From Botryllus schlosseri (Eukaryota), in NCBI GenBank assembly GCA_051294905.1, contig CM119371.1, forward strand, positions 15,254,001-15,318,000: a stretch of 64,000 bases of DNA, read 5' to 3'. The notes below the pieces were generated by a model. The model was not told the origin of the DNA, did not search any database, and was given only the letters and a program-made list of their open reading frames with translations. Shown here piece by piece: positions 1 to 28,098 of the stretch. The translations under genes and the position numbers were made by a program. Numbering within the stretch: the stretch's first letter is position 1; every line of letters begins with the position of its first letter.

Positions 1-370
1 GTTCATCATCATCGTCATTGGTTTATTAGCAATTTTATTAGTTCAATACACCACAAAAAATGCGATACAATGAACAGACAGGAAGTTACTGGAAAAGATG
101 AAGCGTTTTGGTTATCCCGAGGCTGCTGCTCGACAACTCGCAGGTGTGCCTGCAACATCCTCTCGATCAAAATGAGTTTTCAGCCAAGGATGCACAAGAG
201 CTGTTTAGCGCGAAAGAGAGAGAGATAGTTTCAATAAGCGAGCCAAGTTTGGTCTACAGACGTTAAATTTTTTCTCATTCCGAATTTTCATTCAATATTT
301 GCGAATTAACTAATTCTAATCTAACTTGTAGAGCTTCTTGGAGGTACAGAACTTCAATATACATTTGAAC

Positions 371-1219
371 AGTCTATCCATGTTGAAATGAACCCGAATA
401 TTTTCGGCTGACGCTCGTCAGGGGTAATCGTCAGCAACTAGTTGAGTATCGGAAAGAGCGTTGTATATCAACAATCGTATCACAAAATATGACGTCACCT
501 GCATGAAATTTCGAATGAGAGAGCGTTCAATGTACTATTTTTAGGTGGTACATGAACCCCTTTTGTTGACAGAGTTTTGGTTGGTGTATTTTGATAAAAG
601 TCGACTCCAAGGCACGCAAATGGAGATGTGAACATCCCCTTCCAACGACGTGAAATCTGTCGTCTCGATAATTACTCGCACAAATCGGATTATTCAACAA
701 ATGTTTGCTGATCGCAGAATCAGATCATCGGGATCGTGACAGCGTCCGCAGGAACGCATAAACAAGCGTGTCCCCAGATTTATCAGATCACATGTAACAC
801 GCTAGGTTAGAAGCTCACCCTTAACTCATCCGCCTAAACTTTATGCTGACCTATCGAAGGCCATTAATTCTGCCATCAGCAAACATCTGCTGGATAATCC
901 AATTTGTGCGAATAATTATCGAGACGACAGATTTCGCATCGTTGGAAGGGGATGTTCACACTTTTATTTGTGTGCCTTGGAGTCGACTTTTATCAAAATA
1001 CACCAACCAAAACTCTGTCAACAAAAGGGGTTCGTGTACCACTCAAAAAACAGTACATTGAACGCTGTCCCATTCGAAATTTCATGCTGGTGACGTCATA
1101 TTTTGTGATACGATTGTTGATATACAACGTTCTTTCCAATTCTCTACTAGTTGCTGACGATTACCCCTGACGAGTGTCAGCTGAAAATATTCGGGTTCAT
1201 TTCAATATGAATATACTAT
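371..1219. mobile_element. Foldback MITE with ~350-bp inverted arms (copy 1)
   Basis: 371-720 is the reverse complement of ~867-1219 (ttgaaatgaacccgaatattttcggctg... / ...cagctgaaaatattcgggttcatttcaa) with a ~146-bp spacer. Single arms also at 32166-32312, 39903-40151 and 42350-42710. Superfamily not assigned. Confidence 0.9.
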
Positions 1220-1428
1220 TCAATCTAATTTGGAAAAAATCGTGCAATAATAAATCTAATCTAATTTGGTAAAACTGTGTAGCTCTAATTCTAATCCAAA
1301 TCTCATTCGAAAAACCGTATATCCCTAATTCGAATCCTAATATATCATTTAAAACGGAAGATTTTCTAGTTTTCCAAGTCTGGTCTCAGAAGCAATTTGG
1401 CTGTTGACCAGCAAAATCTCATACTGAC

Positions 1429-3819
1429 CTTCATATCCATATTCAGGTGCCGAGGGTGGCTTTGGCGCAGCCCCGTTCCCACCAGATGATGGCGAGACGG
1501 GCCTTTTCCCGCTTTCAATATCTCGACTGGAAGAGCCCCTTGGTGGGGATCCTGGAATGCGGTTGCTGGAATCTGAATAGGGCATTACTTCTGATGATTC
1601 GAGTACTGGAATTATACGATCCTTGTCACTGAGACAGAATTTAGCAACAAAAATCATACTTTTCATAATATAGTGAAATCCTTGATACCTATTTTGAGGT
1701 TGGTTTCAATGCTCTGACCAGATTCGGGTTCATTTCAATATGAATACACCATTCGATTGTATTTCGAAGTTCTGTACCTCCATGAAGCTCTTGAGATTTT
1801 AATATGTATTTTCGAAATAGGTGCAACACTAGCTATTGATTGAGTCAAGTTTGATTGAATTTTATCGCTCGTGTTCCCGGCTATAGGACTTCCCACAACG
1901 CTAAATTTGCCATGCTCATCGGTCAACTACACTGCGCATGTGCATGTGAGCATGATGACAGGAGCTGCATATCTATCGTTAGGTTGGTTATCTATACTCC
2001 TACGGTTGGACTTACCTTTTGAAATCTGTTGAACCGTGGGTTCTGCTGCCGAGGTAAGAGAGTCCAATAAGGTTTGCACATGTTTCGCTTTCTCTTCCTG
2101 GGACCGTTCGGTCTCCTCACACCTGCTACTAACAAAAATTGACATATAGCAATTTTCGAAAATGAATCAAAATTCACAAACACATATAATTTACAGCATA
2201 TTTCGCAAGCATTTTCATACTTTGAGGTGATGGGAACGAAGGGGAAAAATAGGGTGTTTCAAAAACAGGATGTTTTAAATTATATCGGATTTATCGGGCT
2301 AAATCTATTCACAAATGCCTCTCCTGCAGGAATCAGATAATCTCGCACATATCAACAACTCTACACTCATGTACAAAGCCCCGCCAATGTCGAAGCGGGA
2401 TTTCGCATCATTTCGCATTTAAATTAGTAGCGACCTCAACTTGATACCATACAACTGAACCCTTTTGACAAATGGTAATGTATCCCGTCAGAATATGTTA
2501 TACCCAACATTGGTAGGTTCTGCACTGTGAACCTTTTTCATATATTACAATTTAAGCTTCATTATAAGATCTTTGGTTGAAATTGATTGCATTTCAATTG
2601 CGGTCCACTCTATGCATGGCGCTGGCAGCGTAAAAAAAATCACCATCAAACGAGCATGCACCTTGACAATCTCAAAATTTTCTGCTGTGAGATTGACCCG
2701 CCATCACACAACGTCAAAAGCAAAATACACTACATATAGGTAGTCGGCCAATGATGTTCATCCAACCAATTAACGAAATTGATATCGTTGTTTGATGTAC
2801 AAAATCTAGCAGGCGTACATGGTCAATCTTGACTTCATATATATATTGTACTATAAAAACCAAATCCGTGTAATTGGGGTGTTGGCTACTACTGTGTAAC
2901 TTGTGAATGGGGTAATATTAGCATCAAGTATAGAAACCCGCTTTGCACTCTGATCAATGAATGTCACACGCCGAATACATTGTCTGGACTGACCTAGACC
3001 GTTACGGTGTAAGCTAATATTCCTTGCAAGTCGTCGTCGAATTTGTTGGCAAAGCGACGACAGATATTGATTTCATGGGATCATTATATTATTTGATTGC
3101 CCCAGTTGATACATTTGGCGATATTTAAAACGTCAATATGTATTTCAGCATTGTAGCATTTTGTGGCCCGACTCGTCTCTAGGCATCGTGTACAACTTAT
3201 ACATTTGTATACGCTATCACTTCACTGAAATGTTGGGTTGGAACTAGCAATATGACGTCATGAGGTTCACGTTCGCGTTCACACAGAACCTTTTAAAAAG
3301 GTTCACGACACGAATCTGAACCTTTCAAAGGTTCACACCATCCCCATTCTCTACGAAGTACAACAATTTTATTCTAATATTTCTTACTGAGATTTTTCTC
3401 GTGCCAGGCAGGAATTGCTACGATAGGAAATCACATTTATACAATGTGTGTGCAATGTGAATACGGAATGCGACATAGGACAATTTCATCCCGGTCTGTG
3501 TCAAACTTTCCGCAAGTAGAATATGCCATTGTTGGGATAGATTTTAGTTGGGCGTCAAATATCGCCGATAAAAACTCCAGCAGAAAATTTTTAAAAACTC
3601 TTTCACCTGGGAAGAAATTTCTTTTTTAGTTGACGCACGCCTCCTGGTAGTAGGTTACCCATAGAATACGAGTCGTCGTTCGAGACCTCACTTTCGGTGT
3701 AGGAAATCTCATCACCTGAAAAAATACGCATGTTCTATCCATCCGCCCAAGATCATAGAAGGGAGACCAACGTCAAGTCATACGCACCTTCGCCCTCGCA
3801 TTCCTTGGATTCCTGGACC
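1429..3819 (-). CDS. Unit F (E1, E2, E4, E5; E3 deleted; presumably continues beyond the left edge)
   Basis: Exons 3788-3819, 3607-3715, 2016-2122, 1429-1572; E2 (ends phase 2) joins E4 (starts phase 2) in frame. Confidence 0.7.
2510..3346. mobile_element. hAT-like MITE lacking its left end (GAGGTTCACG family)
   Basis: Ends aggttcacaccatcccca. Colinear with the element starting tagggatggtgtgaac at ~62063-63100 and with the right end at ~34290-34478. Confidence 0.8.
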
Positions 3820-4808
3820 CTGTTTGTAAATAGGGAGGTTAAAATCGAACTAATAAAACTGTAAAGACGCTTCACTGGTACTCGAAACTGCCAATAGACA
3901 GCATTGGATAATAATGACAATGACATGAGTCATCGAACATGAATCGAGAAATGATTCCAACGTTTCAAGCCAAATATGACTTGATGAATATTTCAAGGAC
4001 CGAAACTATATGCTCATTGCCAGCAAGAGTTAATTTGTCTCGAGCCTTCTCAAGCAAGATTGGTCGTATTGAAGCATACAAAACTAACGTTGGCGGAACA
4101 AAGACATCTGTGAAGTCCAAATGACTCGGCATTTTCACCAAGGGCAATTGAATAGGCGTTGAAACAATGAGCGGGAGGGCGGCTGAAATCCAAGAATATT
4201 TGAAGCACTAAATCTTCATTTATTGGAGTCCTATTAGTTCGTCGTGGGGAGGTCGCCGTCCATCAACAATAAAGTCTATTTCACCAGGCTGTACACAGCT
4301 CGGGAGGCAGCGACCAAGACAAGCTCTGCAGTATCCTGAATACATTTTTATGATCCTAATAAAAATTGTGTCCGTGAGTAAAAAAGAGATTTTAAAATGT
4401 ATCATATTCACCATTGTTTGGAATGATGACGGCGAATTATTATTATTATTGATAATTAACCGACACTTTCTCATCGTCAAATACCAATACATCCACTGAG
4501 CTCCATGTATTAACAATGTAATTCACTGCTTTCAATTCAGAAATACAATTAATGAACCGCGGGATATACTCTTAAATTTATGACTCGGCCCGCCAAGCAA
4601 TTTTCTGCTTTCATTTGACACGAGGGGAAAACAATTGCATAACCCAGCCATATTGAATGTCTCCGGTCATATGACTTGGTCAGGTTAATACACAAAGAGT
4701 TACGTCATTATCCATGAATAACAAAATGACTCGAGTCAAGTCAGAGAAAAATTGCAACTCGAGTCACTACAACCAAGGGCAAAACTTTTTTACTGAGTAC
4801 AACCTCAC

Positions 4809-7800
4809 CTTGTTGACTTGGCCTTGGGTGTCGACTTGGACATGGCCTTCCCAGCAGGTTTTGCAGTTGGCTCCCGTGAACTGTGATCTGTCGTTGATTC
4901 TGCAACTGAATTTTGGTATCAAATATTTCCAATACTATATGTCCGCGACATTTTGAAGGACGCAATAAACCGTACAGTCATAATAGTTATTGACAAATAA
5001 AATACCCACGCTGGCATAGTAGCTTGTAGCCTGCAAACAACTTCTAGTTTTGATCACAAACAGAACAGCACCGAAGAAAATATCATAGTTAACACAGGCT
5101 CTCAGCTACATCAAGAAAAAAGAGGAATATTGTTTCAAATCTGTCCAAAGAAAATATATTTGGGAATGAAGTGGAAAGATATTTCGCAGCAGACCTTGAG
5201 AGCGTGGAATTTGATGTTTTGAGTTACTGGAAAAGAGAAATAATTTTGCTCATCCCAAGGCTGATGCTTGAGAACTCGTAGGTGTACCTGCAACATTATC
5301 TCTATCAAAGAGAGAACTGTATAGCGCGAAAGAGAGAGAGATAGTTTCAATAAACAAGCCAAGTTTGGTGTACGGACGTTAAATTTTTTCTCATTCGGAA
5401 TTTCAGTCAATATTTGCGAATTAACTAATTCTAATCTAACTTGTAGAGCTTCTTGGAGGTACAGAACTTCAATATACATTTGAACAGTCTATCCATGTTG
5501 AAATGAACCCGAATATTTTCGGCTGACACTCGTCAGGGGTAATCGTCAGCAACTAGTTGAGTATCGGAAAGAGCGTTGTATATCAACAATCGTATCACAA
5601 AATATGACGTCACCTGCATGAAATTTCGAATGAGAGAGCGTTCAATGTACTATTTTTAGGTGGTACATGAACCCCTTTTGTTGACAGAGTTTTGGTTGGT
5701 GCATTTTGATAAAAGTCGACTCCAAGGCACACAAATGGAAATGTGAACATCCCCTTCCAACGACGTGAAATCTGTCGTCTCGATAATTACTCGCACAAAT
5801 CGGATTATTCAACAAATGTTTGCTGATCGCAGAATCAGATCATCGGGATCGTGACAGCGTCCGCAGGAACGCATAAACAAGCGTGTCCCCAGATTTATCA
5901 GATCACATGTAACACGCTAGGTTAGAAGCTCACCCTTAACTCATCCGCCTAAACTTTATGCTGACCTATCGAAGGCCATTAATTCTGCCATCAGCAAACA
6001 TCTGCTGGATAATCCAATTTGTGCGAATAATTATCGAGACGACAGATTTCGCATCGTTGGAAGGGGATGTTCACACTTTTATTTGTGTGCCTTGGAGTCG
6101 ACTTTTATCAAAATACACCAACCAAAACTCTGTCAACAAAAGGGGTTCGTGTACCACTCAAAAAACAGTACATTGAACGCTGTCCCATTCGAAATTTCAT
6201 GCTGGTGACGTCATATTTTGTGATACGATTGTTGATATACAACGTTCTTTCCAATTCTCTACTAGTTGCTGACGATTACCCCTGACGAGTGTCAGCTGAA
6301 AATATTCGGGTTCATTTCAATATGAATATACTATTCAATCTAATTTGGAAAAAATCGTGCAATAATAAATCTAATCTAATTCGGTAAAACTGTGTAGCTC
6401 TAATTCTAATTCAAATCTCATTCGAAAAACCGTATATCCCTAATTCGAATCCTAATATATCATTTAAAACGGAAGATTTTCTAGTTTTCCAAGTCTGGTC
6501 TCAGAAGCAATTTGGCTGTTGACCAGCAAAATCTCATACTGACCTTCATATCCATATTCAGGTGCCGAGGGTGGCTTTGGCGCAGCCCCGTTCCCACCAG
6601 ATGATGGCGAGACGGGCCTTTTCCCGCTTTCAATATCTCGACTGGAAGAGCCCCTTGGTGGGGATCCTGGAATGCGGTTGCTGGAATCTGAATAGGGCAT
6701 TACTTCTGATGATTCGAGTCGAGTACTGGAATTATACGATCCTTGTCACTGAGACAGAATTTAGCAACAAAAATCATACTTTTCATAATATAGTGAAATC
6801 CTTGATACCTATTTTCAGGTTGGTTTCAATGCTCTGACCAGATTCGGGTTCATTTCAATATGAATACACCATTCGATTGTATTTCGAAGTTCTGTACCTC
6901 CATGAAGCTCTTGAGATTTTAATATGTATTTTCGAAATAGGTGCAACACTAGCTATTGATTGAGTCAAGTCTGATTGAATTTTATCGCTCATGTTCCCAG
7001 CTATAGGACTACCAATAACGCTGAATTTGCCATGCTCATCGGTCAACTACACTGTGCATGTGAGCATGATGACAGGAGCTGCATATCTATCGTTAGGTTG
7101 GTTATCTATACTCCTACAGTTAGACTTACCTTTTGAAAGCTGTTGAACCGTGGGTTCTGCCGCCGAGGTAAGAGAGTCCAATAAGGTGTGCACACGTTTC
7201 GTTTTCTCTTCCTGGGGCCGTTCGGTCTCCTCACACCTGCTACTAACAGAATGACTTGTGGCGATTTTCGAGATAAATTCAGTTACCGTAACACATATAT
7301 ATCACAGCATATTTCGCAAGCATGTTTCATAATTTGAGGTGATGCAAACAAACATATCACAACCAGGCGTGTATCCAACAGAGAAAAAAGGGGCCTTTCG
7401 AGAACAGGATGTTATAAATTATATCGGATTTATCGGGCTAAATATAAGCACAAACGCCTCTACTGCGGAATCAGATAATCTCGCACACAATAAATACACT
7501 ACAGGCATATACATAACCCAGTCAATGTTGTAGCGGGAGACCTTATAATTTCGCATTCAAATAAGTAGCAACCTTAACTTGATACCATACAACAGAAGCA
7601 GTTTCACAAATGGTAATGTATCCCGTAGCACACCCACCGAACCCAGTTGAATTATCATGATATAGCACCACTGTGGTTATCGTAGATAACAGCAGAAAGA
7701 GAAACACAGAGATAATTTGACCCTAATTACCAAATGCGAAGCAGCGCGATAAAGTTATAACACAAAGATCTTGCCATTTTACGTTCAATTAAGAAAATGA

Positions 7801-8034
7801 TTTTCGTTTCCGTATCAAATCAGATTTCACAAATTAAAATGTTCAATGCGGAATCTGTTATGTATTTATAAAATTGACCATGAATTAGCTCGGCTGTTGG
7901 AATAACAACTGCCCACCTTGCTGATGTTCTGGTACTGGGGCCTGCCAAATCCTGCTGTTCTCTCACCGCCCCGGCAAAGGGGCTGCGTCCATCATCTCCA
8001 TCGGAAAGAGTTTTCAGCAAAGGATGCAAGAGAG
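4809..8034 (-). CDS. Unit E (chimeric E3*, E4, E5, short E6)
   Basis: Exons 7917-8034 (118 nt, ALLHPLLKTLSDGDDGRSPFAGAVREQQDLAGPSTRTSAR), 7130-7236, 6544-6687, 4809-4905; open frame. Confidence 0.7.
5486..6334. mobile_element. Foldback MITE (copy 2, duplicated with the array unit)
   Basis: Nearly identical to 371-1219 at offset 5115. Confidence 0.9.
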
Positions 8035-8497
8035 CTGTATAGTGGAAAAAAGAGAGAGAGTTTCATTAAACCAGTCAAGCTTGGTGTGCAAGATGTTAAT
8101 CAATTTCATGTTGATTTGCTATGGTTGCTGCGGTATTTCATTCATATTTACGTATTAACTAATTCTAATGTAATTTGGAAAAATTGTGTAGCTGTAATTC
8201 TAATACTAATCTAATTTGAAGAAAAATGTATGTCTCTAATTCTAATTTAATTTAGAAAAACAGTGTAACTCCAATTTCTAATACTTATCTAATTTGGAAA
8301 AAAATTGTGTGATTCTAATTCTAATCTCATTTGGAAGAGCTGTGTGGCTCTAATTCTATTCCAATTCGAACAAAAAAGTGTGTATCTTTAATTCTAATTG
8401 TAATTCAAATCCATTTCGTGAAACTGAAGATTTTCTAGTTTTCCAAGTCTGGTCTCAAAAGCAATTTGGCTGTTGACCAGCGTAATCTTATACTGAC

Positions 8498-11400
8498 CTT
8501 CATGTCCATGTTCAAGTGTCGAATGAGGCTCTGGCGCAGCCTCGCTCCCTCCAGATGATGGCGAGACGGGCCTTTTCCCGCGTCTAATACCTTGCCTGGA
8601 ACAACCCCTTCGCGGCGATCGTGGAATGCGGTTACTGGAATCTGAATGGAGTGTTTATTCTGATGATTCGAGCCGAGTAATGAAAATATACGATCCTTCA
8701 CTAAGAGTGAATTTATCAACGAGAATAATAGTTTTCATAATAAAGTGGAATCCTTGAAACCTCGGTAGTTCGTAACACAGCGTATGATACACGTCGTACA
8801 AATCCATGCAAGTAGAGAAAACGACATTTCTCTGAAGTCATGATCAACCCGCAGAATTATCACCAAACTTGAACAAACTATCGGTACCAATCTTTGGAAT
8901 GATCCTCATGTTCAGACTTTGAGAGCTTTTTAAGGTTGGTTTCAATCATTGGCCAGTGTTGGGATCAAGTCACTACCTTCGAGTCACGAGTCATTTCGAG
9001 TCATTGCACATTTTGACTCGAGCCAAGTCACTTGAATTTTGGAGGTGACTCGAGTCAAGTCGAGTCGAGTCAAGTCAAGCCACGAGTCAAGTCACAATTC
9101 AAGTCAAGTTGCCTTTTCGAAGTATGAGGCATGCTTACGTCAATGCATTTTGCTAGCTGTCTGAAATACAGATTGAGTGGTTATTGATGCTGGATCTATG
9201 AACAAATATAGAGTGAAATAGAAACGCAAGAAGGCGCTTTATTACTCACATATACGTAGAAATGCTTAACTACGTAAGTATAATTGCATACCCTCTGATT
9301 ATTATAGTTACCAGCCAAAATAGAGAATAGAGAGACGAGTTGATAAGATGCAATACATTGCCCATTTACAAATTGATATGATACAATTCCAGTCTGCGTC
9401 GATGGTTGCTGGATGTGTAAATTATATTGGAATTCAATTTCAATAAAACAGGAGGCTTGGTTAAGTTAGGAACAGAGAACAGAAGTACACATTTGCTATT
9501 TAATTACTTTACTATACTAGTTTACGGCAACGTTAGCTGTAAGCTTTGATCACTTCGTTTGTGATCAATTTATTTGTGAGGGAACAATGGAGGCTCAGTA
9601 AAACGCACGATCATTGAATGATTGGTCGCTCTCATGGGTTACACCATCTTTTCGCGTATAATCCGAACGTATGCAAGATACAATGATTATTATCAACATC
9701 GATTGCTTGATGACTCGAAATTGACTCGTGAATTTTGCTCCGAGTCTCGAGTCAATCCACATTTCTGATACGCCGAGTCAAGTCAAGTCAAGTCATTTTA
9801 GCAAAGTGACTCGAGTCAAGTCAAGTCATACAAAAAAGGTGACTCGAGTCTGACTCGAGTCATCCCAACACTGTCATTGGCCAGATTTTAATATGTATTT
9901 TTGAAATAAATACAATACTAGCTTTCGATTAAGTCAACCTTGATTAAATTGTAGCGCTCGCGTTGCCAGCAATAGGACTACCGTAACTTTCCAAGTATAG
10001 TACGCCCCCATGGATAATGCGCATACTTAAAATGACATGCAAATTCTGGAAAAAAGCCTGCACCCATGTATAGTACACACACTGCATTCACAGTACATGA
10101 ATAGTTGTGTTTTGGTATACGATGTTATTGTGTTGGTGGTGTCACTGTTCAACAATCATGACGTAACGATCGCTGATCATTCAACAGTTAGCGGCATGGT
10201 CTCTAAATGATAGTAGATAGCAGATAAAGCCTGCGATAGTTCAGACCAGCGACAAGACATCTTGCGCACGAGGCCTATTACAGATGCGATTGCTCAGTCC
10301 TACGTTTATCTCGTGCGCACCAGGAATGTTGGAGATGCGATAAATTAGCGAGGATTGCTGAGCAGGTAAGGAGCAATCAATGACCTAATTTCACTCGCGT
10401 ACAAACGGCTAACCAACTTAACAGGAGATCACACGCTGTTGTGCAGTGCAGACGCTTCTCAGTAATTGGCAGCGCGTAACACTGATAATACGAATTACTG
10501 GGCACGATTGCTGAATGTGATGCGCGATTAATACGAACATGAGGAAAGGCGTGATTTCAAGTGTTATTTCGAGGGAGATTTTTTTAATGCTTGTTGCACC
10601 CGTGCACCCTCGATTTTAGGACTAAAAATCTGTAAAATTTTGTGCATTATACAGAGAAAATTTCGGTACTAATAATGCTGATTTTGCCCAGCTCAGCAGT
10701 CAACCGCATTGTACATGTGAGCGTGACGACAGGAGCCACTTATCCATCTTTATGTTGATAATCTATACTCCTACAGTTAGACTCACTTCTCGAAACCTGT
10801 TCTGCTGGCGGGAGAAAACTGTTTTGGTGCCGCTCTTGTGCTGCAGAGAGAAGAGAGTCCAATAAGGCCTGCAAAGGTTTCGTTATCCCTCCCATAGATG
10901 GTACAGTTTCCTCACACCTGCCATTTACAAAAAGTGACTTGTAGCAATTTTCCAAAATAAATTTCGTTACTGTAACACAGGGGTGGGCAAACTTTCGAGC
11001 TCGCGGGCCGCATTCAACATTTGAATCCATTCGCGGGCCGCACTATATAAAATTAGGATTATAAACTAAAACGCAGTATTGGTATTTGATTATATAGTGA
11101 GGACATGTATACTTATTTAAAACAATCCAAACATTGCTTTGATGATATCGTACACGCGTCAGAAACAGTGACGAGATTTCATAGGCTGGTCGACCTCAAT
11201 AACCAATTTGTTAAAACTATAGAGATGGAAGACGGTTGTCCTGATTCTTAGATCAGGATTGAATTTTATATCTGTGAAGAGAGATCTGTTCATAGATTGA
11301 CTAATTCCACTTTTGGTTCAGTTCGAGGAAATACAATGCTGACAGCATTCGTAACCATGTTAGCTTCAAACACGCTTCTACCATATGTGTGGATAAAACA

Positions 11401-12872
11401 TGAATACCATAATTTTACGCATACAGAGAACGAATCTACCAAAGACATGCGCGAATCGTTTTTTTATAAGCACATCACTGAAATATTTAAAACTGGAGTG
11501 GTCAATCTGAAATCACACTCGGAATCCGAATTATGTCAATCTCGATTAGGACTTCTGTGATGAGTAGAAGCTGCAACCTTTTAAACTGCGTGGGACTTGA
11601 GATCGGGCTGTAACGCCAGAAATTAAACATAAAAAATAATATAGGAAGCATTTACAATGGAACATGTGGTTCTCAAACTTTTCAAGACCTCCTCTTATGA
11701 TGGTAAAAGATTCCGCGCTCCCCTAATAGCGTCATATCACAAAATGAAACCAGGATGCTAGCAATCCTAATTCCTAACTGGTAGTTTGATGGCATGGAAG
11801 GTTACGACTGTGGATGAGAAATTTGTGAATATGAAATTTAGACTAAATACAGAGCAATAAATCTGAATGAGATGTTTATTTTTTAGTTGATCTCAGCTAT
11901 GCGCCTCCCTTCAGATGCTTTCACGCCCCCAAGGAGGTGCGCCGCCGCCAGTTTGAGATCCACTGCCTTAGAATTATCATGGTGAAATATACCAAGCAAA
12001 AGTTAAATCAAGTCCCTGCAATGATGCGATTTTTAATACGCATTTGATCAATATTTTTAATAAGTTTCTTTAGACTCTCGCGGGCCGCACAGAACGGTGT
12101 GGAGGGCCGCATGCGGCCCGCGGGCCGTAGTTTACCCACCCCTGCTGTAACACATATTTCGCAGCATATTTCACAAGCATGTTTTGTACTTTGAGGTTAT
12201 ACAGAACAACATACCACCACCAGGCGCGTAGTAAAGGGAGAAAAATAGGGGGTGTTTTGATACAGGATTTTTTAAATTATATCGGATTTATCGGGCTAAA
12301 TATATGCACAAACGCCTCTACTGCAGGAACCAGATAATCTCGCACATATCAACTCCGCCAATGTTGTAGCCGGAGACGTTATGATTTCGCATTCAAATAA
12401 GAAGGGGCCTTGACTTGATTTCATACAACAGAACCCGATTTTTCAATCTTTTTTATTCCGGCCCGTAGCACACCCACGGAACCCAGTTGTATCATTAAGA
12501 TAAAGCACAACTTAGGTAAGCGAAGATAACAGCAAAAACAGAAACGAAGACATAATTTGTCCTTGATTACCAAAAGAGAAGCAGCCCGATCAAGTTACAA
12601 CACAAAGATCTTGCCATTTTTCGGTCAAACAAGAACATGATTCCAATTCCGCATCAAATCAGATTTCACAAATAAAATGTTCAATGAGGAATCTGTTATG
12701 TACTGATAAAATCTAAGATGAATTAGTTCGTTTGTTGGAATACCAACTGCCTACCTTGCTGATGTTCTGGCACTCGGACCTGCCAAATCCTCCTGTTCTC
12801 TCATCGCCGCGGCAAAGAGACTGCTTTCCTCATCTCCATAGAAAAGAGTTTTCAGCCAAGGTAGCAAGACAA
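8498..12872 (-). CDS. Unit D (chimeric E3*, extended E4, E5)
   Basis: Exons 12755-12872 (118 nt, phase 1-2), 10787-10917 (131 nt = 107+24), 8498-8641; open frame. Confidence 0.65.
8954..9873. mobile_element. hAT MITE with GAGTC/AAGTC subterminal repeats
   Basis: TIR cagtgttgggat...atcccaacactg; exact 8-bp TSD tcattggc. Relatives at ~36063, ~42918-43584, ~52590-53035 and ~60125-60372. Confidence 0.92.
9981..10666. mobile_element. Tc1/pogo-like MITE in a TA target (unit D)
   Basis: ta|ccgtaactttcc...gaaaatttcgg|ta; absent from the homologous site in units A, E and F. Confidence 0.75.
10978..12144. mobile_element. hAT (Charlie-like) MITE with a nested second MITE
   Basis: TIR caggggtgggcaaac...gtttacccacccctg, exact TSD ctgtaaca, subterminal gcgggccgc motifs; nested gtggttctcaaact...agtttgagatccactg at ~11663-11966. 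Confidence 0.9.
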
Positions 12873-13250
12873 CTGTATAGTGGGAAATAGAGAGAGAGTT
12901 TCATTAAACCAGCCAAGCTTGGTGTCACGACGTTAATCAATTTCATGTTTGATTTGCGATGGGCTGAACTTGATTTTTGCTGCTAATTCTTTCTCATTCG
13001 CAATTTCATTCATATTTGCGAATTAACTAATTCTAATCTAATTTGGAAAAATTGTGTAGCAGTAATTCTAATCCTAATCTGATTTGGAAGAAATGTGTAG
13101 CTCTAATTCCATTCCGATTCGATCAAAAAAGTGTGTATCTTTATTTCTAATTGTAATTCAAATCCATTTAGTGAAACTGAGGATTTTCTAGTTTTCCAAG
13201 TCTGGTCTCAGAAGCAATTTGGCTGCTGACCAGCGTAATCATATACTGAC

Positions 13251-16200
13251 CGTCACATCCATATTCAAGTACCCAGGGAGGCATTGGCTCATCCCCGCTC
13301 CCACCAAATGATGGAGAGACGGGCCTTTTCCCGCATGTAGTACCTGGCCTTGAACAACCACTTTGCGGCAATCCTGGAATGCGGTCACTGGAATCTGAAT
13401 GGAGTATGATTCGAGTCGAGTAATGAAATTATACGATCCATGTCACTAAGGGTGAATTTATCAACGTGAATTATAGTTTTCATAATAAAGTGGAATCCTT
13501 GAAACCCCGGTAGTTCGTAACACAGCTACGATAAACGACGTACAATTCCATGCAAGTAGTGGAAACGACACCTCTCTGAAGTCATGATCAACCCACTGAA
13601 TTATCACCAAACTTGAACAAACTATCGCTACAATTCTTTGGAACGATCCTCATGTTCAGACTTTGAGGGCTATTTTAAGGTTGGTTTCAATGCATTGGCC
13701 AGTTTTTAATATGTATTTTTGAAATAAGCACAACACTAGCTTTCGATTAAGTTAAGTTAGATTGAATTTTAGTGCTCGCGTTGCCAGCTATAGGACTACC
13801 GTAACTTTTCAAGTATAGTACACCACCATGTATAATACGCATACTTAAAATGACAAGCACATTCTGGAAAAAAGCCTGCACCCATGTATAGTACATACAC
13901 TGCTTTCGCAGTACATGAATAGTTGTGTTTGGTATTCGAAATCATTCTGTTTGGTGTCACTGTGGAACAATCATGGCGTAACGATCTCTGATCATTATAC
14001 AATTCACGGCATTGTCTCTAAACGATAGTAGATAGCAGATAAAGCATGGGAGGCCTGCGATAGTTCAGGCCAGCAACAAGACATCTTGCGCAAGAGGTCT
14101 ATTACAGATGCGATTGCTCAGGCCACAGGTTATGTCGTGCGCACAAGGAATGTTGAAGACGCGTCTGTAGTGTTCAGGCCAGCGACGACATCTTGCGCAC
14201 TTGGCATGCTGTATATGCGAATGTTCAGGCCTGTCGGTGATGCGATAAAGTAGCAAGGATTGTCGAGCAGGTATGCAGTAATCAATAACCAAATTTCGCT
14301 CTCGTACAAACGGCAAACCAACTTAACAGGAGATCGCATGCTGTTGCGCAGTGCAGACGCTTCTCACTAATTGGCAGAGCGCAACACTGATAATACAAAT
14401 TACTGGGCAAGATGGCTTAATGTGATGCGCGATTAAAACAAACATGAGGAAAGGCGTGATTTCGAGTGTTATTTCGAGGGAAGTTTTTTTAATGCTCGGT
14501 GCACCCGTGCACCCCCGATTTTAGGACAAAAGATCAGTAAAATTTTGTGCATAATACATGGAAAATTTCTGTACTAATAATGCTGATTTTGCCTAGCTCA
14601 GCAGTTACCTGCATTGTGCATGTGAGCGTGACGACAGGAGCCGCTTATCTATCGTTAGGTTGGTAATCTATACTCCTACAGTTAGACTCACTTTTCGAAA
14701 CCTGTTGGGCCGTGGGTTTTGCTGTTGGGAGAAGATAGTCCAATAACTTCTTCGTGAATTTCGCTGTCTCTTCCTCAGATGGTACGGTCTCCTCACACCT
14801 GCTACCAACAGAAAATGACTATTAGAAATTTTCCAAAACAAATTTAGTTACTGAACACATATATTTCGTAGCATATTTCACAAGCATGTTTCGTACTTTG
14901 AGGTTATACAAACAACATACCACCACCAGGCGCGTGGCAAACGGACAAAATAGGAGGTGTTTCGATAACAGGATGTTCTACATTATATCGGATTTATCGG
15001 GCTAAATATATGCACAAACGCCTCTACTGCAGGAATCAGATAATCTCGCACATATCAACTCCGCAAATGTCGTAGCAGGAGACGTTATGATTTCGCATTC
15101 AAATAAGTAGTGACCTTAACTTGATATCATACAACAGAACCCGATGTTTTATTCTTTTTTATTTCGGCCCGTAGCACACCCACGGAACCCAGTTGTATCA
15201 TTAAGATATAGCACAATTATGGTAAGCGAAAATAAAAGCAGAAAGAGAAACAAAGACATCATTTGTCCTCGATTACCAAAAGAGAAGCAGCGCGATCAAA
15301 TTACAAAACAAAGATGTTGCCATTTTACATTCAAACAAGAACATGATCTCGAGTCCGTATCATATCAGATTTCACAAGTTAAAATGATCAATGCGGAATC
15401 TGTTATGTATGGATAAAATCTACGACGAATTAGCTTGGTTGTTGTAATAACGACTGCCCACCTTGCTGATCTTCTGGCACTCGGGCCTGCCAAATCCTGT
15501 TCTCTTACCGCCGCGGCAAAGGGACTGCGTAAAGGAATATCAATTTCTCACTAGTACTCGAAAATACCGATGGACAATGTTGGATGATGAAGACAATCAA
15601 TTCTAAGGATTCAAGTCGAGTAGGGAGAGATTATTTCTATGAGGGGGAATTTGGGCTCAAACTTAGGTCAATGGCGACCACGAGATGAAAAAGGTCGGGA
15701 ACCACTGGGCTAGAGTATATTCTGCCGATTAGGAGTTTTATTTCTGAATTAAAAGCAGTGGATTACATTGTCAGCATATGCTCCTGATTGGCAATGTTTA
15801 TATGGAGCTTGGTACATTTGACTCTCTGCATGGTTTCTATATCTTATAAATTTAATGAATTATGCTTACTCTTTACCAGGGTTGTTACCAAGTCACAAGA
15901 TTCTGAGTCACAAGTAAACCTCACTTTTATAGTTTTGACTTGAGTCAAGTCGAGTCATTTTCAATTCACCACCGAGTGAATTCGAGTCCAAGTGAGTCCG
16001 AGTCCAAGACATTGTGTTGACTGCTCAGTTTCCTGTTAGTCTTGCCACAGACACTGTTAATAACTCTGTTTGGTGATATCGAATAGTTTGCATTCATAAT
16101 ATACTAAATTTCCTCACTTTTAGCAGTTTTTGGTCGCATTTACAAGTACAAGTACCAATAGCCGAAATCCAATTAGCGTGATTACTAGGGCGGTTTTTTT

Positions 16201-17702
16201 TTACCTAAAAAAAAGAAAATTTTGACCTAAAAAATCAAAATTTGGACTTTTTTTGACCTAAAAAAAATGAATTTTGACCAAATTTTGACCTAACGTATGC
16301 AAATTAGGTGTTTTCCCAAATAATGTCAAAATTGTACCAGTTATCTACATTTCCGGTTGTAACTGGCTGTCCCAACGAAGTAGTTTGGCCTGAAAAAACG
16401 TTTTTGGCTTAGAAACAGGCGACTTTGTACATATAAAAAACAATATTTTACCGAAATCTGGCTCTATGAAGAATTCCAGTGGTTGCAATACGTATTATGG
16501 CGGAAATAATTTAGAAAAATTGTAGTACAACGAGAGATACTTTCCTATATTCTTGTGTAAAAAGTGCATGTCCTTACTTGCCAAGGACGTTCAACAGCAG
16601 CAGTTGGCTGACAACACTCAAGTTGTGCAATGTGCATACACTACTGGTGACGCAATATGTTGCTTCATTCTGACAATGTTGTCTATTACAATTTTTCATC
16701 ATGTGCTTCTCAATATAAGAATGATGCCCCAGTTAGGATATTGCGGTACGTTGACCATTGACCGTTGATGATTCAGTATGAGCAGACAATGCGCCGTGTA
16801 CAACAGTAGGCCTATAAAGTAGACTACAAGCTGTAAAATATCAAATGATACGTTCACAGACACTGCAAAATCTATGATACAAACGAAATAAAGACGTCAA
16901 AAAAATTTTGACTTTATGAACAATTTTGACAAATTTTGACCTAACGCTACAATTTTGACAAAATTTTGACAAATTTTGACATGTCAAAAAAAAACCGCCC
17001 CAGTGATTACTTTACTTTTCTTCGAAATTATAATGAAACGTCGGTCTTGGCCGTTAGAGTCTCGAGTCATATGACTTTGTACGAGTCATGCGCAATGACT
17101 CGAGTCCAAGTTGAGTCAATACACAAATTGACTCGAGGTGAATCATTTCCGTATTTTGAGAAAATGACTCGAGTCAAGTCGAGTCATCAGAAATCGTGAC
17201 TTAAACGGGACTCATGTCATGACATGACTTGAGTCTTTACAACCCTTTATCAAGTACAACAATTTGATTCCATATTTCTTAATGAGAGTTTTCTCGTGCC
17301 GGGCATGCATTGCTACAATAGGAAATCACATTTGAAATATTTGTGTGCAATGTGAATATGCAAGGATGGACAATTTCTGTTTCAAACGTTGCGCAAGTAG
17401 ATACATGCCATAGTTGGGGTAGATCTTATTTAGGCGTTGAATATTGCCGATACGAACGAACTCAAGCAGAAATTTTTCCAAAACTCCTTCACCTGGGAAG
17501 AAATGTCTCTCTTGGTTCAACAAAACCTGGTAGTAGGTTAGCCATAGAATACGAGTCGTTGTTCGACACCTCACTCTCGCTTGAGGAAATCCAGTCACCT
17601 GAAAAAACACTCATGTGCTATCCATCCGCCCAAGATTAGAAAAGGGAGACCAACGTCAAGTCATACACACCTTCCCCCTCGCATTCCTTGAGTTCCTGGA
17701 CC
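13251..17702 (-). CDS. Unit C (E1, E2, shortened E3, E4, E5; no E6)
   Basis: Exons 17671-17702, 17493-17598, 15462-15524 (new acceptor cctttacgcag, 63 nt), 14692-14798, 13251-13394; open frame. Confidence 0.7.
13799..14571. mobile_element. Same pogo-like MITE at the orthologous site of unit C
   Basis: Colinear with 9981-10666, same insertion point ggacta|. Confidence 0.75.
15877..17246. mobile_element. GAGTC-type hAT MITE with a nested hAT MITE (16186-17002)
   Basis: Outer cagggttgt...acaaccct; inner tagggcggtttttt...aaaaaaccgcccca with exact TSD gtgattac and ttttgac subterminal repeats. Confidence 0.88.
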
Positions 17703-18820
17703 CTGTTTGTGAATAGGCAGGTTGAAAACAAACTAATGAGAATGTAATGACACCTCATGGGTGCTGGATACTACCAATAGACAGTGCTGGATGATGATGC
17801 CAACAATATGAGTCATCGAACATGAATCGAGAAATTATTCTAACGATTCGAGTCAAGTATGACTTGATGCTTATTTCAAGTACTTAAACTATATGCTCAT
17901 TCCCAGCAAGAGTTATTTTGTCACGAGCCTTCTCAAGCTAGATTGGTCGTATTGAAGCATACGAAACTAACGTTGGTGGAACAGAGGTATCTGTGAAGTC
18001 GTGAATGACTCAGCATTTTCACCAAGTGCAATTGAATAGCAGGTGAAACGATGAGCGGGCGACCAAAAATCCAAGAATATTCGGAGCACTAAATCTTCGT
18101 TTACTGGAGTCGGGGGAGAACCCGTCCTAATAGTTTGTCGCAAGCAGGCCGCCGTGAAGTATAACTTAAGTCGGTATTATGGCAAAAACACAAAGACAGA
18201 CGCTCGGCTAAGGGAGGGCGCGTTTCGGAGGAAGAGTGCGTTTCGGAGGCACTGCTAGTTTCCATCAACGATAAAGTCTATTTAACCAGGCTGTACACTG
18301 CTCGAGAGGCAGCGACCAAGACAGGCTTTGTAGTATCCTAACCATATTTTTACTATCCTAATAAAAAATAGTCTCAGCGGGTTAACAAAGATTTTAAAAT
18401 GTATCATGTTCGCCATTGTTTTGAATTATGACGGCCAATAAATATTATTTTTGATAATTAACCGACACTTTCTCATCGTCAAATACCAATACATCCACTG
18501 AGTACCATGTATTAACAATGTAATTCACTCCTTCCAATTTAGAAATACAATTAAAACAACGTAGGATATAGTTAAAAAATTTTGATTCGCTCCACCAACG
18601 TATTTTCTGCTTTCATTTGGCCCGCGGGGAAAATAATTACCCACCCCTGACATATTGAATGTCTCGGCTCATATGACTTGGTCGGGTAAATACACAAAGT
18701 GAATCAAGTCGAGTTACGTGATTTTTCATGTATAACAAAATGACTCGAGTCGAGTAAAAAAAATTGCAACACGAGTCATTATAACACAGGGCCAAACTTA
18801 TTTACCGGGCACAACCTTAC

Positions 18821-21800
18821 CTGGACGACATAATCTTGGGAGTCGACTTTGACTTGAGCGTCGACTTCAACTTAGGCATCAACTTTGACTTGGGAGTCGA
18901 CTCGGACTTGGCCTTCCCAGCAGGTCTTGTAGTTGGCTCCTGTGATCTGTGATCTGTCATTGATTTTGCAACTGAAGTTTAGTGTCAAATATTTCCAATA
19001 CTATATGTCCGCGAAATTTTGAAGAGCGTCAACAAGAATATTCCTCTCGCTCTGAGAAATTCAATTCCAAACCGCCATCGCGTTACTTATACCGTACAGT
19101 CATAGTAGTTATTGTGACGAATAAAATAGCCATGCTGGCATAGTGCCTTGTAGCCTGCGAACAACCTGTAGTCAGAACAGCACCATAGAAAAAGACATAG
19201 TTAACACATGTTCTCCACCACATCAAGAAAAAAGAGGAAGATTGCTTCAAATATGTCCAAAGAAAATATAGTAGGGAATGAAGTGAAAAGATATTTCACA
19301 ACAGAGCTTGAGATCATGGAATTTCGCTACTGCTCTCCGTCTCCATCAAAAAGAGATTTCAGCAAAGGATGCACGAGAACTGTATAGCGCGAAAGAGAGA
19401 GAGAGAGAGAGTTTCATTAAACGAGCCAAGTTTGGTGTACAGACATTAATCATTCTAATGCTTGATTTGTTGAGCTGAACTTGAATTTTGCTGTTAATTT
19501 TTTCTCATTCGGAATTTCATTTAAGATTTGCGCATTAACTAATTCTAATCTGATTTGAAAAAAAAACATGTAGCTCTGCAAATTCTAATACTAATCTAAT
19601 TTGAAAAATTGTGTAGCTGTAATTCTAATTCTGAAGTAATTTGGAAAAAAATATGTAGCTCTAATTCTAGTACAAATCTAATTTGGAAATAATTGTGCCA
19701 TTCTAAATCTAATGTAATTTGGTAAACCTGTGTAGCTATTCTTCTAATACTAATCTAATTTGAAAAGAAATTGTGTATTTTTAAGTATAATCTAATTCGG
19801 AAATACTGTGTAGCGCTAATTCTAATTCGAAAAAAAACTGTATATCTCTAATTCTAATATTAATCGTAATCCATCCCGTATAACAAAAGATTTTATAGCT
19901 TGCAAGTCTGGTCTTAGAAGCAATTTGGCTGTTGACTGGCGTAATCTAATACTGACCTTCATATCCATTTTCAGGTGCCGAGGGTGGCTTTGGCGCAGCC
20001 CCGCTCCCACCAGATGATGGCGAGACGGGCCTTTTCCCGCTTTCAATATCTTGACTGGAAGAGCCCCTTGGTGGCGATCCTGGAATGCGGCTGCTGGAAT
20101 CTGAATAGGGCATTAATTATGATGATTCAAGTCAAGTACTGAAATCATACGCTACTTGTCACTAAGAGTGAATTTATCAACGAGGTCATAGTTTTCATAG
20201 TACAGTGAAATCCTTGAAACCTAATTTGCGGTTGGTTTCAATGCACAGGCAAGATTTGGGTTATGAACAGCAGGGGCCCGAAAACTGATCCCTGAGCACG
20301 TGAGCATGAGGACAGGAGCTGCATATCTATCCTCGGGTTTGTAACCTATGGTCCCATAGTTGGACTCACTTTTTGAAAGCTGTTGAGCCGTGGGTTCTGC
20401 TGCCGAGGGAAGAGAGTCCAATAAGGGGTGCAGACGTTTCGTTTTCTCACCCTCAGGTCGTACGGTCTCCTCACACCTGCTACTAACAAAAAATGACTAG
20501 TGGCGATCTTCAATAATAAATTCAGTTACTGTAACACATATATAACACAGCATATTTCGCCAGCATGTTTCATATTTTGAGGTGAGGCAAGCAAACACAC
20601 CACAACAACGCGCGTAGCCAACGGAGAAAAAAAAGGGCCGTTACGAAAACATGTTATAAATTATATTGGATTTATTGGGCAAAATATATGTACAAATGCC
20701 CCCACTGGAAGAATCAGATAATCTCGACATAATAACAACACTATACGCCTATACAATTTTACGTTAAAATAAGAACTTGATCTTGGGTCATTATCAAATC
20801 AGATTTCGCAAATTAAAATGTTCTATGTTCTGTTATGCATTTATAAAATTGACGACGAATTAGATTGGTTGTTGGAATAACGACTGCCCACCTTGCGGGT
20901 GTTCTGGTACTCGGTCCTGCCAAATCCTGCTGTTCTCTTCCTGCCGCGGCAAAGGGACTGCATGCTTTCTTTTTGCTGTTTGTTGATTGCAGGTTAAAAT
21001 CGAACCAACCAGAAACGTTAGGGAAAATATACTCCTAACTAGTACTCAAAACCACCATTGGATGACGCTGGATAATGAATACAATCATTCGGGTACTCGA
21101 ATCAGAATCGAGTAATAATTCTAAAGATTGAAGCCGAGTAGAGAGGGGAAATTTAGGCTCCATTCTCGGCCAATGGGTTCACAAGATAAAAAAAAGGCTG
21201 GTAACCACTGGGTAAGAGTATATTTTACGAAATGGGAGTTTTATTTCTAAATTGAAAGCAGTGAATTACATTGTTAACACATGCTCCTAACTGGAAATGT
21301 TTATATGGGGCTTGGTACGATAGCTACAGGTTTCATGATGACATGATATATTAGTCTCTCTGCATTGTGTCTATATCTTATAACTTAGACATTATGCTTA
21401 CTCTTTACCAAGTACACCAATTTTATTCTAATATTTCTTAATGAGATTTTTCTGGTGCCAGGCATGAATTGCTACAATACGAAATCACATTTACACAATG
21501 TGTGTGCAATGTGAATAAGCAAGGTCGTACAATATCATCCCGCTCTGTTTCGAACTTTGCACAAGTAGAATATGCCCTTCTTGGGGTAGATTTTATTTAG
21601 GCGTTGAATATTGCCGATACGAACGAACTCAAGCAGAAATTTTTCAAAAACTCTTTCACCTGGGAGGAAATTTCTTTTTTAGTTGACGCGCGCCTCCTGG
21701 TAGTAGCTTACCCATAGAATACGAGTCGTGACTCGACACATCACTGCAGGTGGAGGAAATCTCGTCACCTGAAAAAAAAAACATGTGCTAACCATCGGCC

Positions 21801-21872
21801 CAAGATCAGAGAAGAGAGAGCAACGTCAAGTCATACGCACCTTCCCTCTCGTTTTCCTTGGGTTCCTGGACC
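18821..21872 (-). CDS. Unit B (E1-E6) of the exon-cassette array
   Basis: Exons 21841-21872, 21660-21768, 20892-20975, 20370-20476, 19957-20100, 18821-18971; splice sites as in unit A, all open in the same frame. Confidence 0.75.
19535..19860. repeat. Intronic degenerate ~35-40-bp satellite (ctaattctaatctaatttggaaaaattgtgtag)
   Basis: Present next to every E5 copy with variable copy number (also ~1220-1345, 6335-6460, 8155-8410, 13020-13165, 23875-24048). Confidence 0.85.
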
Positions 21873-22889
21873 CTGTTTGTAAATAGGCAGGTTAAAATCG
21901 AACTAATAAAAATGTAAAGACGCCTCACTGGTACTCGAAACTACCAATGGACAGTGTTGGATGATGATGCCAATGATACGAACACTCGAGTCTGAATCGA
22001 AAAATTATGTTAATGATTCGAGTCAAGTACGACTTGATGAATATTGCAAGTACTTAAACTATATGCTCATTCCCAGCAAGAGTTAGTTCGACTCGGGCCT
22101 TCTCAAGTTAGATTGGTCGTATTGAAGCATACAAAACTAACGTTGGTGGAACAGAGATATCTGGGAAGTCGTAAATGACTCAGCATTTTCACCAAGTGTA
22201 ATTGAACAGGTGATGAAACGATGAGCGGACGGGTGGCTGAAATTCCAAGAATATTAGGCGCACTAATTCTTCGTTTATTGGAGTCGAAGGAGAACCCGTC
22301 TTATCAGTTTGTCGCGAGCAGGTCGCCGTGGAGTATAATTTAAGTCGGTATTATGGCAAAAAGACAAAGACAGACACTCGGCTAAGGGAGGGCGCGTTTC
22401 GGAAGCACTGCTACTTTCCATCAACAATAAAGTCTATTTCACCAGGCTGTAGACTGCTCCAGAGGCAGCAACCAAGACAAGCTTTGTAGTATCTTCAATA
22501 CATTTTTCATTATCCTAATAAAAAATCGTATCAGCGGGTTGAAAAAGCGTTCAAAATGTATCATGTGGTGTGGACCATTGTTTTGAATTATGACTGCGAT
22601 AATTAATCAACACTTCCTCGTTGTCAAATACCAACAGATCCACAGGCCACCATGTATGTAACTCACTGCTTTCCATTTAGAAATACAAATGAAACAGGAT
22701 ATAGGCCCACCAACGTATTTTCTGCGATCATTTGGCCCGCGGGGATAATAATCGCCCACTCCTGCCATATTGAATGTCATATGACTTGGTCGGGTTAATA
22801 CACAAATTGACTCAAGTCAAGTCAAAGAAAAATTGCAACTAGAGTCATTAGAACCCAGGGCGAAACTTATTTACAGAGCACAAGCTCAC

Positions 22890-25800: not shown

Positions 25801-27145
25801 GAAGTGTGCAGCTAACTCTTGAAAAGAGGCACCCGAAAATTCTACGAGTTCAATGAATATTCTTTTATGATGGATGTTGTATTGAAAGCCATGATATAGG
25901 CCTAGCACCACTTTGATAAGCAAAGATAACAGCAGAAAGAGAAACCAAGGTATAATTTGTTCTTGATTACCAAAAGCATAGCAGCGCGATCAATTTACAA
26001 CACAAAGATCTTGCCATTTTACGTTCAAAGAAGAACATGATCTCGAGTCATTATCATATCAGATTTCACAAATTAAAATGTTCTATGTGCAATCAGTTAT
26101 GTATTTATAAAATTCACGAATTAGCTCGGTTGTTGGAATAACAACTGCCCACCTTGCTGATCTTCTGGTACTCGGTCCTGCCAAATCCTGTTGTTTTCTT
26201 ACCGCCACGGCAAAGGGACTGCGTGTTCTCTTTTTGCTGTTTGTTGATTACAGATTAAAATCAAACCAACCAGAAACGTTAAGGAAAATAAACTCCTCAC
26301 TAGTACTCAAACGCAACGTTGGATGGCGCTGGATGATGAATACAATCATTCGAGTAATCGAATCAGAATCGAGAAATAATGCTAAAGATTGAAGCCGAGT
26401 AGAGAGAGATGATTTCAACGAGGGGAAATTTAGGCTCCAATCTCGGTCAATGGGTGTACGAGTTAAAAAAGGTTGGTAACCACTGGGTTTGAATATATTT
26501 TACAAAATGGCAGTTTTATTCCTAAATTGAAAGCTATGGATTACATTGTTAACATATGATGCTGACTAGAAATGTTTATATGAGGCTTGGTATACGATAG
26601 CTACAGGTTTCATGATGACATGATACATTTGTCTCTCTGCTTTGCGTCTATATCTTATCATGTAGACAAATTATGTTTACTCTTTACCATGTACAACACA
26701 TGTATTCTAATACTCCTCAATGAGATTTTTCTCGTGCCAGGCATGAATTGCTACTATAGGAAATCACATTCAAACTATGTGTGTGAAATGTGAATATGCA
26801 AGGATCAAGAATTCCATCCCGGTTTGTTCCAAACTTTGCACAAGTAGAATATGCCATTGTTGGGGTAGATTTTATTTAGGCGTCAAATATAACCAATACG
26901 AACTCAAGCAAAAATTTTTCAAAAACTCTTTCACCTGGGAAATTTCTTTTTTGGTTGGACCACACTTCCTGGTAGTCGGTTACCCATAGAATACGAGTGG
27001 TCACTTGACACCCCACTGCAGGTGGATGAAATCTCGTCACCTGAAAAAGACGCGCATGTTCTATCCATCCGCCCAAGATCAGAGAAGATAGAGCAACGTC
27101 AAGTCATACATACCTTCCCCCTCGCTTTCCTTGGGTTCCTGGACC
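22890..27145 (-). CDS. Unit A of the tandem exon-cassette gene (exons E1-E6), low-complexity basic repeat protein of unknown family
   Basis: GT-AG exons E1 27114-27145, E2 26935-27040, E3 26153-26236, E4 25191-25297, E5 24135-24278, E6 22890-23298. Phases 2/1/2/2/1/1/2 join without stops: VQEPKESEGEGDEISSTCSGVSSDHSYSMGNRLPG..KKKFPSKKRTRSPFAVAVRKQQDLAGPSTRRSARCEETVRS..LLDS..NSSNRIPGLPPRGSS..GKRPVSPS..PEYGYEVANSTADHRSREPTTRPAGKARSKSTPKAKLTSKST...SSR. Start codon not established. Confidence 0.75.
22891..23240. repeat. Coding minisatellite of 30-bp and 12-bp units inside exon E6 of unit A
   Basis: Plus-strand unit ~GACGTCAACTTGGCCTTGGRCGTCGACTTT, about 11 copies; minus strand reads KSTPKAKLTS / KSTSKAKLTS. 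Confidence 0.95.
23500..23725 (+). pseudogene. Decayed hAT transposase C-terminal dimerisation-domain fragment, intronic and antisense to the array gene
   Basis: Translation NEVERYFS..CDVLSYWN..RATSPPSERVF matches the hAT C-terminal E..RY / D.L.YW / ATS..SERVFS motifs. Homologous remnants at ~110-210, ~5100-5325, ~19215-19385, and partial ones at ~7990-8040 and ~12830-12880. Confidence 0.8.
24344..24723. mobile_element. Probable PIF/Harbinger-type MITE, unit A only
   Basis: Inserted into gtcactaa|gagtg, which is empty in other units; TAA duplication; degenerate TIR agactgggtcaca / cgtgactgatgct. Confidence 0.6.
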
Positions 27146-27949: not shown

Positions 27950-28098
27950 GCCCTTCCAAGCTATGCCGGTAATGCTGAGCGACAAGCGGGGCAGTCATCG
28001 ATACAACTGTTAATAATCAAGCCTTTAGTCTAACCCGGGCGGGGATGGAGCCCGCCGACCTGCGATCAAGAAGCCGGACGCTCCGCCATGATGCTATC
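27950..28098 (-). mobile_element. Degenerate tRNA-derived SINE
   Basis: Head gatagcatcatggcggagcgtccggcttct...gggctccatccccgcccggg is similar to the 38.2-kb SINE, followed by tgccccgcttgtcgctcagcatta; 3' boundary approximate. Confidence 0.65.

Follow-up and report, generated by a model that had tools for sequence, protein, structure and literature searches.

The question raised by this locus is whether a decayed transposon lying antisense in an intron can supply one end of a coding exon, and whether such an exon can become a lasting part of a gene. The locus is a minus-strand gene in bases 1-28.2 kb of a 64-kb stretch of Botryllus schlosseri DNA, hereafter the window (C1:15254001-15318000). 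This host gene is built as tandem exon-intron units with the exons E1 to E6. In two of the units, D and E, we found a predicted hybrid exon, here termed X, in which a piece antisense to a hAT transposon remnant is followed by the body of E3. We suggest that X is probably a real, fixed exonisation, and that one deletion made it and duplication likely spread it to eight copies.

Structure of the hybrid exon and its host gene

The exons of a complete unit have the phases 2>1 (E1), 1>2 (E2), 2>2 (E3), 2>1 (E4), 1>1 (E5) and 1>2 (E6). Both copies of X in the window have an AG ahead and a GT behind, contain no stop, and are preceded by the phase-1 donors of E5 at 13251 and 8498. Nucleotides 1-45 of X are hAT-like, and the remaining 73 nt are E3 from its nucleotide 12 onwards, the first 11 nt of E3 being gone. 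Both junctions lack E6, E1, E2 and the native E3 acceptor. This is in line with an earlier note on this DNA, which had described a deletion fusing the remnant to the E3 body. The coordinates, 118-nt length, 1-2 phase and open translations that it gave for the two exons were reproduced as well (Table 1).

A search of the genome (495.5 Mb in 219 contigs) revealed five copies of the gene. X is found in eight places in these copies (2, 2, 2, 1 and 1), with seven distinct sequences, and all are 118 nt long, open and bounded by AG and GT. The breakpoint (45 + 73 nt) is identical in 8/8 hybrids, and a single deletion followed by duplication is thus the simplest history. The earlier note had treated the two fusions in the window as separate events. 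We rejected two independent fusions because the breakpoints are identical; most likely there was one deletion, which was then duplicated. In a tree built on 120 nt, the fused pieces cluster with the unit-A remnants with a support of 0.95.

Another candidate origin, in which X is an old terminal kinase exon (HPWL resembles the end of a kinase), was rejected since the segment can be aligned with the hAT repeat.

The gene as a whole retains its reading frame. With both hybrids included, the 45 predicted exons of the window copy give an open chain of 1,628 codons, and all internal exons of this chain are bounded by AG and GT. The predicted product contains 18% Ser, 11% Lys and 10% Pro. Where whole exons are missing from the five gene copies, the phase is unaffected: the losses seen are of E3 alone, of E5 alone, of an E1+E2 pair and, in the paralog C17a, of the E1-E3 block.

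The E3 of unit C is a case of its own (Table 1). There, an internal CAG behind a new T/C-rich run is the predicted acceptor, and this arrangement is seen in three gene copies (the window copy and the paralogs C1b and C17a).

Origin of the acceptor

The intronic remnant shares 77-84% DNA identity with a dispersed repeat. Of the 48 matches listed, 25 lie at places other than the gene (40 of the 423 candidates were scored). Twenty dispersed copies were compared; approximately 400-800 nt are common to them, and their flanks are unrelated. Tested against Pfam PF05699, the C-terminal dimerisation region of hAT transposases, three of five dispersed copies were above the cut-off and two below. Of the gene's own remnants, five pieces were tested, four of them from a paralogous gene. 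One of these four matched below the cut-off (17.2 bits, E 0.0043); the remaining pieces gave no match, the unit-A remnant of the window among them. We take it that the gene's own remnants fail the cut-off because they are too decayed. By comparison with the dispersed family, the remnant can be assigned to a hAT transposon and its dimerisation domain, PF05699. This region is the source of the 45 nt and of the AG, with X using the opposite strand. The hAT piece is not a domesticated transposase. In the remnants, which are incomplete, the plus-strand transposase frame is disrupted by stops and frameshifts. Downstream of the gene lies an unrelated hAT remnant (L047:7231-7621, minus strand) that scores above the PF05699 cut-off.

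The acceptor AG is the antisense of the E-L-Y-S codons directly after SERVFS, within the region coding for the dimerisation domain, and the dispersed copies have this AG too. The earlier note had looked to the flank of the remnant for the acceptor. The comparison makes antisense hAT sequence the most likely source, as that note held; the flank is not, as the AG lies inside the coding remnant. That note also saw a similar acceptor in unfused units, near 23721, 19379 and 5316, and the AG is present at these positions in units A, B and F (Table 1). The CT tract in front of the AG has a different history. It is absent from nine aligned dispersed copies, and the tract in its AG context occurs at 16 sites genome-wide, all within the five gene copies. 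A tract belonging to the transposon family was therefore rejected. A 4-nt insertion in the exon part is likewise absent from the nine aligned dispersed copies, and one late type of unit in the gene lacks it as well; without the insertion, the phase-1 reading meets a TGA at codon 6. Because the CT tract and the 4-nt insertion are specific to the gene, we infer that the acceptor was built stepwise before the fusion.

We propose the following order of events. A hAT copy would have inserted antisense into the E5-E6 intron of an ancestral unit and supplied the AG. The CT tract and the 4-nt insertion would have arisen in place, and duplication of the unit would then have spread a silent acceptor. 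A deletion would have taken out E6-E1-E2 and the E3 acceptor, so that the E3 donor came to lie 118 nt behind the AG, and at this distance the pair could be recognised as an exon. Tandem and segmental duplication would finally have multiplied X. Splicing to the AG of an unfused unit would run into a stop or out of frame, and any such product would thus be lost.

Constraint, expression and competing explanations

X has diverged at approximately the intron rate, with 45 parsimony steps in 118 nt (22 in the hAT part and 23 in the E3 part) versus 87 in 258 intron columns. The eight hybrids contain no stop and no indel; the flanking introns contain 12 gap events. Simulation and Poisson calculation gave a neutral probability of 0.004-0.006 for X without stop, without frameshift and with AG and GT intact, which is a rough value as the indel rates rest on few events. 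Each X is followed by an E4 that relies on a phase-2 donor, and this E4 is undamaged in all eight cases over 58 steps, with P(no stop) of 0.076 and P(no frameshift) of 0.09-0.16.

The last 11 nt of the X acceptor have 0 steps, versus 4 for the E4 acceptor and 3 for the E5 acceptor, and none of 184 windows of 11 nt in the adjacent intron is invariant; it counts against this comparison that the 11-nt window was picked after inspection of the data. In 28 unfused remnants, gathered by BLAST with no AG required, the same 11 nt have 1.55 steps per column versus a background of 1.15. The AG was lost in five of these remnants (three events), later indels within the 45 nt occurred in 11, and four more are without the 4-nt insertion. 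The unfused remnants behave neutrally at the acceptor. On a generic acceptor score, the AG at 118 nt ranks first among the 33-46 AGs in every copy, on a matrix set by hand on which the established, pyrimidine-poor acceptors of the gene score low. To call this acceptor strong, as in the earlier note, would rest on that matrix, and the word should be taken with caution.

The pN/pS is 0.89 in the E3 part and 0.79-0.96 in the other, established exons (pairwise values that are not independent), and amino-acid constraint, which would require a value below 1, was not recognised. It seems to be the frame and the splice sites that are under selection, and not the amino acids. It is likely, in our judgement, that the hAT acceptor is substantially used.

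Seven RNA runs were compared, of which five were informative: three bulk runs (92% likeness) and two of four single-cell runs (82%, over 12400-15620). The single-cell runs X15 (0 reads) and X13 (2 reads) were uninformative. A further run, X1, was rejected as RNA, since intronic pieces had a depth of approximately 10 and repeats of approximately 20,000, which is DNA-like. The single-cell reads were nearly all on intronic repeats. The earlier note had proposed reads joining 13251 to 12872 and 8498 to 8034 as a check. No such read stood among the joints listed: in the bulk runs none of the 15 listed, of 94, was a splice junction, nor was either of the two listed in the single-cell runs, and exon depth was essentially nil in the five informative runs. 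As the gene had no detectable expression in these five samples, use of the junctions is neither shown nor refuted.

Several observations weigh against a fixed exonisation through the hAT acceptor. Depth was zero over 12393-12853 and 14698-15619 in all three bulk runs, and over the E3 part of X, E4 and E3' in both informative single-cell runs. The 120-nt tree does not resolve the fused pieces as one clade. Taken alone, the hAT part is weakly significant (P approximately 0.13-0.16 for no stop and no frameshift), and its pN/pS of 2.8, from few sites, speaks for no amino-acid constraint. The AG survives in 23 of the 28 unfused units, where its silence would need explaining. All eight copies have further in-frame AGs within X, at distances of 79, 43 and 25 nt from the donor.

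Three other explanations were considered. In the first, X is part of an optional X+E4 cassette that is mostly skipped, with E5 also spliced to the next E5. This explanation agrees with ours on the origin of X, and differs in how frequently X is included. Skipping X and the next E4 leaves an open chain of 1,470 codons, the gene family tolerates phase-neutral exon losses, and exons derived from transposable elements in Ciona are mostly alternative, according to the available part of PMC2911107. However, X and its E4 are intact in 8/8 cases and orphaned E3 copies elsewhere have decayed, so even a cassette needs substantial inclusion, and we regard predominant skipping as improbable. The same skipping results bear on the view in the earlier note that X rescues the frame and is exactly what is needed after E5. 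Skipping X alone leads to a stop at codon 657, as that view would have it. Since joint skipping of X and E4 keeps the frame, "rescue" is overstated: X preserves the X+E4 module, not necessarily the whole gene.

The second holds that the whole family is silent, or died recently, and that chance has kept the hybrids open. The lack of exon coverage in the RNA runs, the pN/pS near 1, a frameshifted E6 in one paralog and the failure to find a protein homologue are all in its favour. A dead family is nevertheless hard to reconcile with the E5 copies, 34/34 of which are 144 nt long across 180 substitution steps, a number for which the intron rate predicts approximately 10 frameshifts, nor does it fit the open 1,628-codon chain and the phase-neutral exon losses. 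We find it quite improbable. In the third, which we judge very improbable, the E3 donor pairs with an acceptor inside the E3 body, such as a CAG 25 nt upstream of that donor, with the hAT sequence left in the intron; the in-frame AGs in all copies, the pyrimidine-poor real acceptors of the gene and the unconstrained amino acids of the hAT part agree with this, but the internal AGs stand in purine-rich context, two of them being GAG, and the invariant 11 nt at the hAT AG and the 45 nt free of stops and indels are left unexplained.

A more far-reaching version of the exonisation has, in our judgement, a little less than an even chance of being true. X could be a constitutive 'phase adaptor' exon, built in steps that can be dated, from a transposon AG, a microsatellite tract, a 4-nt insertion and a deletion. 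A new, shorter unit of three exons, X-E4-E5, could then have expanded in the gene family, and a hydrophobic motif of 15 residues from antisense transposase DNA would have been added to a disordered protein. The 28 unfused copies would serve as a control showing that a nearby donor alone activates the acceptor.

Related systems and other features of the locus

The mechanism of exonisation is already known; what sets the present case apart is that the exon keeps the frame, seems to be fixed and amplified, and has 28 unfused controls. The closest case in the literature is a COL4A5 deletion through which a neighbouring antisense AluY became exonised (Nozu et al. 2014, PMC4190880); PMC7786948 gives background and refers to this case. 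According to the available part of the 2014 paper, the deletion took away the 5' part of a host exon, and the donor of this exon came to lie close to a cryptic acceptor within an intronic transposon in antisense orientation. The outcome was a fusion exon whose 5' part is transposon and whose 3' part is host. The locus studied here has the same layout, with an AG in an antisense intronic transposable element, its splice use being predicted, and a deletion that joined the element to what remains of a host exon, its 3' part with the donor. The COL4A5 case involves a retrotransposon in one patient family, is proven by cDNA, and leads to a premature stop and disease, as far as that part of the paper tells. 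X, in contrast, comes from a coding remnant of a DNA transposon, is in frame, is present in eight copies in a gene family of tandem units, and is known from DNA only.

A second COL4A5 exon is bipartite, with an acceptor derived from LINE-1 (Nozu et al. 2017, PMC5441408). In the portion of this paper that was available, the exon is likewise activated by a deletion, its acceptor comes from a dead transposon that had earlier gathered mutations in place, and acceptor, pyrimidine tract and branch site are all derived from the transposon. Both halves of that exon are described as intronic and a stop is present, whereas the 3' half of X is a host exon and its frame is open. Exonisation of transposable elements in non-mammals includes DNA repeats in zebrafish and C. 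elegans and nine cases in Ciona intestinalis (Sela et al. 2010, PMC2911107). The available part of that survey shows DNA-transposon sequence giving splice sites to host genes in either orientation. Its cases are mostly alternative and often frame-breaking, and in that part none is a phase-changing hybrid made by deletion and amplified with a repeat unit. The accessible portion of PMC13326754 held nothing on ascidian acceptors. In the literature searched, the host gene is not described and there is nothing on an exapted hAT transposase exon in ascidians.

If splicing is confirmed, X would be a neat natural experiment in how exons arise. There are 36 places with this cryptic acceptor; in eight of them the deletion has placed a donor at 118 nt and the acceptor appears selected, and in the remaining 28 it drifts. 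Exon definition thereby becomes directly testable in an invertebrate by minigene. The deletion-activated transposon exons in the available parts of the cited papers are disease alleles; this one seems to have been kept and amplified.

Table 1. Positions of the hybrid exons, their neighbours, the hAT remnants and the gene copies (window coordinates unless a contig is given)
Feature	Position	Strand	Remarks
Hybrid exon X(D)	12755..12872	-	118 nt, phase 1>2; 12872-12828 antisense hAT, 12827-12755 E3 body and native donor
Hybrid exon X(E)	7917..8034	-	118 nt, phase 1>2; 8034-7990 antisense hAT, 7989-7917 E3 body
Predicted acceptor of X(D)	12873..12898	-	CT tract specific to the gene family, AG native to the hAT repeat
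Predicted acceptor of X(E)	8035..8060	-	predicted from sequence
E5 upstream of X(D)	13251..13394	-	144 nt, phase 1>1
E4 downstream of X(D)	10787..10917	-	131 nt (in-frame 24-nt insertion), phase 2>1
E5 upstream of X(E)	8498..8641	-	144 nt, phase 1>1
E4 downstream of X(E)	7130..7236	-	107 nt, phase 2>1
Truncated hAT dimerisation-domain remnant, unit D	12829..12936	+ (sense)	left behind by the deletion
Truncated hAT remnant, unit E	7989..8099	+ (sense)	
Unfused intronic hAT remnant, unit A	23417..23785	+	homologous AG before 23721; nearest relative of the fused pieces
Unfused hAT remnant, unit B	19146..19449	+	AG before 19379; phase-1 frame stops after 17 codons
Unfused hAT remnant, unit F	5022..5397	+	AG before 5316; 26-nt deletion right behind the AG
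Unfused hAT remnant, unit G	1..279	+	AG before 200; continues past the window edge
E3 of unit C	15462..15524	-	predicted 63 nt, phase 2>2; native acceptor removed by a separate deletion
Predicted first coding exon	28196..28209	-	ATG, 14 nt, phase 0>2; found in 5/5 gene copies
Host gene	1..28209	-	encodes an S/K/P/E-rich low-complexity protein; extends past the left end of the window
Gene copy (window's)	C1:15.237-15.282 Mb	-	
Gene copy (paralog C1b)	C1:15.549-15.593 Mb	+	
Gene copy	C16:18.513-18.555 Mb	+	
Gene copy	C17:0.108-0.132 Mb	+	
Gene copy	C17:1.829-1.860 Mb	-	

The segmental duplication reaches at least 24 kb beyond the repeat units of the gene. Paralog C1b, which is inverted and approximately 270 kb distant, is 98-99.7% identical to the window copy outside the units. 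E6 has an internal K/S/T/P repeat (23280-22890 on the minus strand of the window, and the homologous E6) that varies from 79 to 775 nt among copies. The E6 copies keep the phase 1>2 despite this variation, except one E6 of C1b (C1:15586799), which is 215 nt and out of frame versus 235 nt in the window copy; this is either a true lesion or an assembly error.

On the 3' side of the gene there are two further candidate exons, and a Pfam scan at this end gave no domain. No protein relatives were found for E5 in a search limited to proteins of 84-2000 aa, and none for the downstream 97-aa frame. The Atlas search gave nothing usable for E5 and weak unnamed matches only for the 97-aa frame.

The youngest unit duplication in the window is that of 84-2488 and 5222-7626, with 92.7% identity over 2.4 kb. 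A repeat of approximately 360 nt forms the inverted pairs 365-720/867-1223 and 5480-5835/5982-6338 and is also found at 32162, 39898 and 42351. It resembles a miniature inverted-repeat transposable element and was copied along with the most recent unit duplication. Open frames at 57649-58452 and, on the minus strand, at 55306-55683, 61569-61979 and 48027-48488 resemble pieces of other genes or transposases.

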